Shown here: piece after piece, positions 32,499 through 51,757 of the stretch | Layout of the letters: the number at the start of each line of letters is the position of its first letter | Position numbering within the stretch: position 1 is the stretch's first letter | Source of the DNA: a virus | Length of the DNA: 64,000 nt | Strand: one strand, 5' to 3' | Virus record (IMG/VR): IMGVR_UViG_3300032753_001573 | Coordinates: 64,001 to 128,000 of that record | Program-made: the position numbers and the translations under genes | Notes under the pieces: model-generated | The model's input: only the letters and a program-made list of their open reading frames with translations | What the model was told of the DNA's origin: nothing | Database searches by the model: none

Positions 32499-32548
32499 AT
32501 TTAATTATAGGGTCTTTACATTCTCATAAACCTGTGCTATAAATAAAA

Positions 32549-32885
32549 TAGCTGTTGTTGATACCAACGGAGATAGCTGGATCGGAAGCGGGAGGCAGAG
32601 CCCGCCCACTCCACCAAAGATACATCGTGAGGGGCTAGTTATACGGCGCATTTGAACAAAGTATAACCCACTGTGTAATAGTGATCATAAAGACAGTGAG
32701 CGGTGTATCTTTGATGGGGTGGAAACAGGATCGACGGACGTTGAAAAGGTTGGAGTAGATAGCCGTGCGCAAGCGACGTACCGCAAGAAAACTATAAGTG
32801 TCAACGATAACGTGGCACCTTATGAGATGAGCCTCGCGGTTTGACCTCAATGGGTTTGGTTTAGCCTGGAAACAGAATTAAACCA
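32549..32885 (+). ncRNA. ssrA: Circularly permuted two-piece tmRNA (alphaproteobacterial type)
   Basis: Acceptor piece ends CCACTCC-A-CCA (32616); coding piece starts GGGGTGGAAACAGGATCGAC (32716); G3.U70 pair; tag frame 32800-32844 VNDNVAPYEMSLAV; CCTGGAAACAGAA 3' hairpin. The 5' end is approximate. Confidence 0.92.
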
Positions 32886-32912
32886 AAGAGGGCGGGAAAC
32901 CGTCCTCTTTTT
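32885..32912 (+). terminator. Intrinsic terminator of ssrA
   Basis: AAAGAGGGCGG-GAAA-CCGTCCTCTTT followed by T-run. Confidence 0.85.
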
Positions 32913-50354: not shown

Positions 50355-50783
50355 ATGCAGATGAGAGAATTAATCAAGATACTAGAACAAGTAAATGATA
50401 GCAGTAACAAAATAACACGTTCTGCATTCATATACCTGCCTCCAAAAACCCCCAAAGACAAATTCGCACAATGCAGTACCTGCCAATTGTTTTTACCAAA
50501 TGCACAACGTTGCGGAATTTTTGGTAAGAGTGATGTTGTAAAGGCATCTGCATCTTGCGGATTATATCTACATGGCAAACCGCATGATGATCAACCAATA
50601 CAAGACATTGTCACACCAGAACAAGCAGGATATGTTGATCATGCTGTTAGATGTGAAAATTGCAGTTGGTACAAAGATCGGCAATGCGATCTATTCAAAC
50701 TGTTGAATAGCAAAATACCAGATGCATTTGATTGCGATCCAAACGTTGAACCACAGGCTTGTTGCAATGCCTGGCAAGAATGA
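50355..50783 (+). CDS. Tandem HiPIP-like Cys-rich protein
   Basis: CSTC...C...ASCGLY and CENC...C...ACCNAW; TATAAATA late promoter. Confidence 0.55.
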   Translation: MQMRELIKILEQVNDSSNKITRSAFIYLPPKTPKDKFAQCSTCQLFLPNAQRCGIFGKSDVVKASASCGLYLHGKPHDDQPIQDIVTPEQAGYVDHAVRCENCSWYKDRQCDLFKLLNSKIPDAFDCDPNVEPQACCNAWQE

Positions 50784-50820
50784 CATTTGTATAATTTCAA
50801 TATTTGAACTATAATATAAG

Positions 50821-50863
50821 AGAGGACACGACACTCAACCCTCATAAAATATTCTGGTGTCAT
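50821..50863 (+). promoter_or_regulatory. Candidate preQ1-I-like pseudoknot riboswitch
   Basis: P1 GAGG/CCTC, A-rich tail ATAAAATA, loop GACAC pairing with GTGTC next to the SD; leads the operon containing queD. Confidence 0.5.
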
Positions 50864-50878
50864 CTTAGGAGAACATAG

Positions 50879-51058
50879 ATGGCAAAAATCATTATAACAA
50901 CTGATTCAGGTAAGACTTTTACAGTTGACACCCTAGACAAATATTTGATGGATACAAGTGATCTTGGATTGCAGTCTACAATTGAGTTGTTTAAAATTAT
51001 AGCAGAAGAAGTAGCAGCATTACATAATGCTGAAAAAGATTCTGTGGGAGTTAAGTGA
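50879..51058 (+). CDS. Small hypothetical protein (59 aa, not in ORF track)
   Basis: AGGAG SD; stop overlaps queD start (TGATG). Confidence 0.6.
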   Translation: MAKIIITTDSGKTFTVDTLDKYLMDTSDLGLQSTIELFKIIAEEVAALHNAEKDSVGVK

Positions 51059-51528
51059 TGGCCAAGTACGTATCGACAAAAACTTACAAGCAGCTAGGAC
51101 CAGTAGCATATAGGCAGTGGCGTGCAGACAGTCATTGTAATCAGATCCATGGATATGCACTCAGCTTCCATTTTGAGTTTGAATCAGATACACTTGATGT
51201 TAGAAACTGGGTAATGGATTTTGGTGGATTAAAGCCATTGAAGAGTTTGTTAGAAGATTGGTTTGACCATACTCTACTAGTAGCAGCCGATGATCCACAG
51301 CGCGAACACCTGCTCAATCTAGGCAAGCTTGGGCTAGCTAAAATTACAGAAGTAGAAAAGACTGGATGCGAAGGGCTAGCAGATTTCCTCTATGAATATG
51401 TAAACACTATATTTTTGCCAAATTACGGTGAGAAAGATCGCATATGGTGTAGCAGAGTTGAAGTAAGAGAGACTGATGCCAACATGGCCATGAGGATCGG
51501 CCATAGAGAAGATCGAGAATTTGATTAA
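51058..51528 (+). CDS. queD: 6-carboxy-5,6,7,8-tetrahydropterin synthase (QueD/PTPS family)
   Basis: HCNQIHGY, VMDFGGLK, FDHT, CE.LA, VRET. Confidence 0.88.
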   Translation: MAKYVSTKTYKQLGPVAYRQWRADSHCNQIHGYALSFHFEFESDTLDVRNWVMDFGGLKPLKSLLEDWFDHTLLVAADDPQREHLLNLGKLGLAKITEVEKTGCEGLADFLYEYVNTIFLPNYGEKDRIWCSRVEVRETDANMAMRIGHREDREFD

Positions 51529-51757
51529 ATTAAACGTTTACCATCTAAAATACTGATAAAATAATATATGCCCGGCTAATATTATGCGCGGGTATATATT
51601 TCTGCGTCACTGTCTTAAATACAGTTGATGTCGAACGTGAAGGACTATAAAACGCCGCAATATTTATATAATTTTCCAATGATATCAACAAGATATTTTT
51701 GTAATATTGACAGGCAGTCCTGCGCAGTATAAAACGTAAAAAAAGGAAGATTTAAGC

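Follow-up and report, generated by a model that had tools for sequence, protein, structure and literature searches.

The closest described systems are the preQ1-I riboswitches (RF00522, types I-III; B. subtilis queC, T. tengcongensis and E. coli; PMC11625349, PMC10622847), small H-type pseudoknots in which an invariant G-C pair stands atop P1 and L3 is A-rich. Their specificity cytosine lies directly 5' of the P1 3' strand and is preceded by U or A (PMC11625349). Phage gene sets for 7-deazaguanine DNA modification comprise FolE, QueD and QueE, with or without QueC, DpdL and DpdA1-4; in these sets the QueD signature is CxxxHGH and that of DpdL is LxxxHRHxF (PMC10516641). The word riboswitch does not occur in the text of that study, and searches of the available literature returned no description of the leader RNA analyzed here.

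The window analyzed here is a stretch of 64,000 nt of an uncultured virus (positions 64,001 to 128,000 of the IMG/VR record IMGVR_UViG_3300032753_001573). The complete record measures 155,688 nt and is about 36% complete according to CheckV, which points to a giant lake phage with a genome of some 400 kb or larger. Between the end of an unannotated 142-aa ORF (50355-50783, plus strand) and the ATG of the next ORF (50879), a gap of 95 nt holds the leader. The upstream ORF is Cys-rich near its end (CENCSWYKDRQCD...CCNAWQE) and has no match in Pfam, PHROGs or NCBIfam. A putative sigma-70-like promoter occupies positions 50787-50815 of the plus strand (TTGTAT at 50787-50792, a spacer of 17 nt and TATAAT at 50810-50815), and would place the transcript start close to the first P1 base; its -35 box, TTGTAT, falls below the threshold of the promoter scan, and a second TATAAT lies at 50790-50795. 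Relatives such as loci L011 and L058 carry TTGACA-N17-TATAAT/TACAAT just 5' of the motif.

Positions 50821-50861 are predicted, by comparison with related leaders, to fold as an H-type pseudoknot on the plus strand, with GAGG/CCUC as P1 and GACAC/GUGUC as P2. The P1 5' strand, AGAGG (50821-50825), forms four pairs, GAGG 50822-50825 with CCUC 50840-50843, and the fifth is a mismatch of A50821 with A50844. L1 is ACA (50826-50828), where the family mostly has NCU and a subfamily of very large phages has ACA, CCA or ACG. It is followed by the P2 5' strand GACAC (50830-50834), in the family register, by L2, UCAAC (50835-50839), of which UCA is invariant in the family alignment columns, and by the P1 3' strand CCUC(A) (50840-50844). 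C50839, directly 5' of this strand, occupies the position of the preQ1-I specificity cytosine (PMC11625349). The tail that forms L3 (50845-50856, UAAAAUAUUCUG) consists of an A-rich UAAAAUA and a conserved UUCUG, the usual next C being missing. In the P2 3' strand, GUGUC (50857-50861), G50857 replaces a conserved C and pairs with C50834. The original prediction had described a TATAAT box, P1 GAGG/CCTC, an A-rich tail and GTGTC 5 nt before the Shine-Dalgarno (SD) sequence AGGAG (50867-50871), and all of these are present where it placed them. Its pairing of the GACAC loop with GTGTC likewise coincides with the P2 register of the family, five of five pairs being formed. It had also proposed alternative registers from a tandem repeat of GACAC; two copies do exist (50825-50829 and 50830-50834), of which only the second serves in P2. 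The first runs into P1; pairing it with GUGUC would take up G50825 of P1 and depart from the family register, and this reading was rejected. The fold of the window leader as a single sequence is not better than that of shuffled versions (z = -1.2), and the case for the leader therefore rests on comparative evidence.

The QueD-like protein encoded in the window has 384 relatives in IMG/VR, and in about 60 of the 80 best loci the motif stands directly before the queD ATG. A gene-blind DNA pattern (GGTCT, N5-14, TCRNCCC, N5, ANANAN, TCYGC) matched at least 120 stretches. Among the 79 new loci it recovered, 73 have a QueD-like ORF 20-41 nt past the motif, with products 34-86% identical to the window protein; two of the other six are plain chance, and in the rest an extra ORF precedes queD or the contig ends. 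When five phage records were searched with the family model, each gave one strong match, always at queD. The only other match with E < 0.1 in these records is a partial one that covers the 5' half of the leader model with 19.2 bits (E = 8.7e-4), located at G002:C1:5226-5251 on the minus strand, about 600 nt ahead of the complete leader in locus L092; it may be a remnant of a second leader copy.

Both helices vary in a compensatory manner. In a model-fitted alignment of 100 leaders, which was fitted to P2 and not to P1, P1 is 99% paired with compensatory changes in three of its five pairs, and P2 is 84% paired with all five pairs varying on both sides. P1 occurs as AGAGG/CCUCU, AGCGG/CCGCU, ACCGG/CCGGU, AGUGG/CCACU, AUCGG/CCGAU and UGCGG/CCGCA. 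Compensatory changes thus affect eight of the ten pairs, and the covariation score (0.512 versus 0.150 when shuffled) is not reached in any of 500 shuffles; partners slid by 1-3 columns are only 45-54% paired. An independent analysis of cognate loops placed P2 in this register too, immediately behind UCYGC, and counted 15 or more distinct pair types. The alignment of regions upstream of phage queD genes, proposed with the original prediction, speaks for it, the regions being conserved and both helices showing compensatory changes. Near-invariant unpaired positions, of a kind typical of aptamers, comprise UCA..C, the A-rich tail with three invariant adenines, and UUCYG. The C before the P1 3' strand is invariant in 38 distinct leaders and in all rows of the 100-leader alignment; the base preceding it varies among U, C and A, the window copy having A at this place (AC).

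Not every relative carries the leader. In the QueD-anchored retrieval from the large-phage clade, the majority of distant QueD clades (68 of 80 loci) lack a leader. It is also missing in two close relatives, L001 (QueD 90% identical) and L008 (85%), in which queD begins 1-8 nt past the upstream gene (...KEHDKKY*); L003, L009 and L012 have the leader after this same upstream gene, and its absence from the former pair looks like a clean loss. A blastn search of GenBank phages with two leaders returned nothing relevant, and a model search of the queD loci of the three closest cultured phages (ACP17, X1 and BUDD) found no leader. In 185,579 prokaryote genomes, a pattern of the AGCGG type gave two matches, both judged to be chance (GC-rich, no P2 and no queD). 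Taken together, these sequence comparisons indicate that the queD-leader pseudoknot is a real conserved family, specific to phages and located almost only before QueD-like genes, and maintained by compensatory substitutions in hundreds of uncultured phages.

Covariation and conserved single-stranded bases would fit a protein site as well as an aptamer. The leader could accordingly be a cis element that acts independently of any ligand, either as the operator of an RNA-binding protein of phage or host in autogenous or temporal control of translation, or as a folding, stability or thermometer element. Its carriers are large T4-like or jumbo phages. Such phages use translational repressors, and the pseudoknot in the T4 gene 32 leader serves autogenous translational control. 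However, the leader agrees with a known metabolite aptamer down to single features, among them the C ahead of the P1 3' strand, the A-rich L3 and the invariant G-C atop P1, and its tie to one metabolic gene holds across QueD proteins that are 34-90% identical and across changing neighbours, which favours a metabolite signal over a genome-specific protein. A ligand-independent element is thus considered unlikely, and the queD-leader pseudoknot, as judged from its conservation, is a strong riboswitch candidate that probably senses a ligand.

The way in which a ligand could act on expression is suggested by a second structure, which the original prediction had missed. In the minimum-free-energy fold, UGUCAUCU (50858-50865) pairs with AGAUGGCA (50877-50884) to form a competing hairpin (50858-50884, plus strand) with the AUG (50879-50881) inside its stem and the SD in its loop, not in the stem. 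The sequence UGUC is common to this hairpin and to the P2 3' strand. The energy of the hairpin is -8.4 kcal/mol versus about -4 to -5.6 kcal/mol for P2, and the RNA should therefore rest closed unless the knot is stabilized; what remains of the hairpin once P2 has formed amounts to -0.2 kcal/mol. Since the P2 3' strand is shared with the hairpin that hides the start, formation of the knot should free the start site, as in an ON switch.

The P2 3' strand is likewise shared with a helix masking the start codon or the SD in at least five platforms of different design elsewhere. One design, CCUAUG/CAUAGG, hides the SD; another is UGUCRUC/GAUGGCA with an inner CUURCUC/GAGNCWAG; further designs are ACUCC/GGAGU, GCCAUUG/CAAUGGC and UUGCCA/UGGCAA, and L242 and L252 have UUCUGC/GCAGAA. 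When the pseudoknot is left out, the fold of 80 among 96 unique leaders joins 3 nt or more of the aptamer 3' part to the ribosome-binding region (-14 to +9). A chimera control, in which aptamers were joined to non-cognate platforms, was weakly discriminating (overlap 81% versus 68%), and one on the second codon, GCA in both platform classes, was not discriminating, so that the ON polarity rests mainly on the variety of platform designs. On this secondary-structure logic, a translational ON switch is slightly favoured as the predicted function of the leader. ON control is uncommon for biosynthetic genes, which speaks against this polarity. In A-type leaders (for example L022, 2975-2990), the loop of the CCUAUG/CAUAGG hairpin is almost always CUAUAAUAA or similar and contains TATAAT, which could be an internal -10 box giving rise to an aptamer-less transcript or just an AU-rich loop.

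The first ORF behind the window leader is orf59 (50879-51058, plus strand), which encodes an orphan protein of 59 aa starting MAK. Its TGA overlaps the ATG of the QueD-like T-fold gene (51058-51528, plus strand; PF01242 at 3.8e-16, motif Cx3HGY) in the sequence TGATG (51056-51060). The view that the leader heads a queD operon is thus correct in that a queD-like gene is coupled behind it, and needs amending in that the orphan comes first. No relative of orf59 was found in viral contigs, 5.8 billion proteins, Pfam, PHROGs or any fetched locus. Contigs from four lake-water runs, which may all belong to one campaign, cover the junctions of orf59 with the leader and with queD without any difference and show no locus variants, indicating that the arrangement is not an assembly artefact.

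The same order of leader, extra ORF, overlapping stop and start, and queD recurs with unrelated inserts in two other loci, both with a TAATG overlap with queD: an 85-aa insert of no known kind in L098 (6345-6602, minus strand) and a 240-aa Methyltransf_9-like insert in L133 (4617-5339, minus strand). In L246 (3614-3890, plus strand), an N-terminal extension of roughly 90 aa lies between leader and queD. The inserts of the window, L098 and L133 begin AUG-GCA, which the platform helix of the window needs for pairing. From this organization we infer that control reaches queD via translational coupling behind orf59; the window would be an example of a leader that captured an extra ORF while still coupled to queD. 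Past the stop of the queD-like gene, a GC-rich inverted repeat (GCCCGGC...GCGCGGG, 51567-51600, plus strand) is followed by a T-rich run. Repeat and run may together act as a weak terminator at the end of the orf59-queD unit; they do not appear among the results of the terminator scan. Elsewhere in the window (32511-32887, plus strand), Rfam recognizes a two-piece alpha-type tmRNA (RF01849, 90.2 bits; permuted tmRNA RF04321, 67.6 bits), and ARAGORN reported no tmRNA or tRNA in the window.

The enzymes linked to the leader form a distinctive group. The motif Cx3HGY occurs in 153 of 153 QueD-like proteins examined (73 behind pattern-found leaders and 80 from the QueD-anchored retrieval; loci L001-L175), and matches neither the CxxxHGH of QueD nor the LxxxHRHxF of DpdL (PMC10516641). 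One presumed zinc-binding histidine is a tyrosine, and the reaction may therefore differ from that of canonical QueD. With regard to the idea that the leader controls a phage 7-deazaguanine gene, the gene downstream is QueD-like by family (PF01242) and its exact reaction is presumed: with Cx3HGY in all of these enzymes, the name QueD is a family assignment rather than a proven activity. The closest cultured homologue is the QueD-like gene product of Acidovorax phage ACP17 (73.7%), one of two phages whose dpdL expression was attempted (PMC10516641).

With respect to the rest of the pathway, the 155-kb record contains no FolE, QueC, TGT or clear QueE, giving only weak generic radical-SAM matches. 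As the record is about 36% complete, the missing genes are not evidence of absence, and the 7-deazaguanine context is unproven for this phage. In relatives (L022, G001, G002, G003 and G005), FolE lies 1-2 kb upstream of queD, and in L022 a QueE-like radical SAM gene is located two genes downstream of it (PHROG 2076 at 1.9e-53). Pfam revealed no QueC or TGT in five partial genomes of relatives, and their set of FolE, QueD-like and QueE-like genes resembles the QueC-less pathways described previously (PMC10516641). Between FolE and the leader, L022 (1277-2924, plus strand) also encodes a protein resembling cytidylyltransferases and a fusion of a kinase with a nucleotidyltransferase-like domain (PHROG 10255), and between queD and QueE a 275-aa protein with a weak methyltransferase match; these extra genes may represent further steps of a modified-base pathway.

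The reading that we prefer, with a probability of roughly 0.6, is that positions 50821-50884 of the window form a ligand-driven ON riboswitch before queD, modelled as an H-type pseudoknot aptamer of about 45 nt and a translational platform. In the absence of ligand, the P2 3' strand GUGUC would pair with the start-codon region AGAUGGCA and initiation would be blocked. The invariant C before the P1 3' strand suggests a ligand with a guanine-like Watson-Crick face, which 7-deazapurines, guanine and pterins fit alike, and the candidates are small guanine-like molecules, either a 7-deazapurine (preQ0, preQ1 or CDG) or a pterin. Such a molecule would be read by C50839 and would stabilize P2 and a triplex of the tail with P1. 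UGUC would then be pulled from the hairpin, leaving a helix of about -0.2 kcal/mol and freeing the AUG and the SD, and orf59 would be translated, followed through the overlapping TGATG by the queD-like enzyme of the 7-deazaguanine pathway. Counting against this reading are the position of the SD in the hairpin loop, the single-sequence fold that shuffled versions equal, the low scores and departures of the window copy described below, the pathway genes missing from the record and the weakly discriminating chimera control.

The window copy is very probably a divergent member of the family, as judged from its sequence, and its divergence raises the question of whether it still regulates. It scores 34-37 bits in seed models versus a typical value of about 55, among the lowest of the set. 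A leave-one-out model gives it 12.8 bits (E = 0.012 over 94 kb), as the best match in the 64-kb window, at exactly 50818-50864. Three departures from near-invariant positions account for the weak score: A for U at position 3 of L1, no C after UCUG, and A.A at the base of P1. Together with the orphan ORF inserted behind the leader, the loss of the leader altogether in the close relatives L001 and L008 and the lack of another pathway gene in the 155-kb record, these departures could mean that the family is real but that this copy is a decaying relic which no longer regulates. Against a relic, the copy keeps GG/CC of P1, C at position 2 of L1, UCA..C, the three tail adenines and UUCUG, all five P2 pairs are formed in the family register, and the anti-AUG hairpin retains its full 8 bp. 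The insert, too, preserves the AUG-GCA that the platform uses, and its TGATG overlap couples it to queD, an arrangement also seen with the inserts of L098 and L133.

Moreover, the departures are not private to the window. A search with a GGACA-type pattern recovered members with L1 ACA in L222, L241, L242, L246, L250 and L252 (contigs of 65-524 kb), three of which also have UCUGG, and the independent QueD-anchored retrieval found L1 ACA, CCA or ACG in eight loci (contigs of 55-465 kb). The L1 type (ACA, CCA or ACG) and UCUGG thus recur in at least eight diverged contigs of phages of 100-520 kb, and the variants of L1 and UCUGG are common to the window copy and a subfamily in phages of 400-520 kb. 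This recurrence argues for a natural subtype, changed at two otherwise near-invariant positions, rather than for one-off decay, and we regard a relic as quite improbable.

Returning to the preferred reading of a ligand-driven ON riboswitch, it can be extended to the family as a whole. The leaders could constitute a phage-only riboswitch class, a distant offshoot of preQ1-I that senses 7-deazapurines or pterins and turns ON the committed T-fold enzyme of DNA hypermodification, with the subtype that has ACA and lacks the C being altered in specificity. We propose this extension tentatively, at somewhat less than even odds, on the basis of sequence comparison. The intermediates sensed would be, for example, CDG, preQ0 or dihydroneopterin triphosphate, and by analogy the subtype would be changed at two pocket-proximal positions. 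If ligand binding is confirmed, the class would be essentially virus-only and would govern the enzyme at the entry to 7-deazaguanine DNA modification. Modification of this kind is an anti-restriction strategy. The leaders would also provide a compact natural aptamer scaffold (about 45 nt) that occurs in hundreds of sequence variants and is combined with five or more kinds of platform, useful for understanding how one fold gets rewired and possibly retuned to new ligands.

How far the leaders are related to known preQ1 sensors was assessed with Rfam models. Against RF00522, whose gathering score is 39 bits, there was no match at E <= 10 on the window (50700-51000), on L031 (2915-3015) or on 10 loci, and no leader was matched in the phage records G000, G001, G003 and G005; the B. 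subtilis control passes the cut-off. The whole of Rfam 15, including all preQ1 models, gave no relevant family for the window, 10 loci and two narrow stretches, either at the gathering cut-off or at E <= 10. The comparison with preQ1 models that had been suggested as a check was therefore negative for every leader examined, and the original idea of a variant preQ1 riboswitch survives in the parallel with preQ1-I architecture, not in membership of an Rfam preQ1 family. An ordinary preQ1-I riboswitch (RF00522), binding preQ1 and turning translation OFF, would explain the H-type topology, the A-rich L3, the queuosine-pathway gene downstream and the AC that precedes the P1 3' strand here and in types II and III, but is highly improbable given the lack of an RF00522 match at E <= 10 on stretches of 100-300 nt or in four phage records, an SD outside P2, and additional invariant positions that set the leaders apart.

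The resemblance to preQ1-I nevertheless extends through the whole aptamer. The leaders share the small H-type pseudoknot, with a P1 of 5 bp in the family topped by an invariant G-C pair, a C directly 5' of the P1 3' strand with A, U or C in front of it, an L3 rich in A after P1, a P2 formed between loop and 3' tail, and a location before a gene of the queuosine or 7-deazaguanine pathway. preQ1-II is about 80 nt long, and preQ1-III is larger still. Both of these classes (RF01054 and RF02680) are likewise pseudoknotted preQ1 sensors that control translation, and preQ1-III has its expression platform away from the pocket, as the leader does; however, they differ from it in topology (an embedded hairpin and the HLout type, respectively) and are OFF switches (PMC11625349), and neither of their models matches the leaders.

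In contrast to preQ1-I, the leaders have NCU or ACA in L1 instead of the UU motif of types I and III, an L2 with an additional invariant UCA, and UUCYG(C) separating the A-rich tail from P2, and they are found essentially only in uncultured phages. Their P2, at 4-6 bp, exceeds that of preQ1-I in length and leaves out the SD: whereas OFF control by preQ1-I sequesters the SD or a terminator in the knot, the SD of the leaders lies at least 5 nt past P2, which competes with the helix masking the SD or AUG rather than forming it. The leaders are for this reason predicted to be ON switches where the known preQ1 switches are OFF, and, if true, this polarity would be opposite to that of every preQ1 switch in the 2024 review of the family (PMC11625349).
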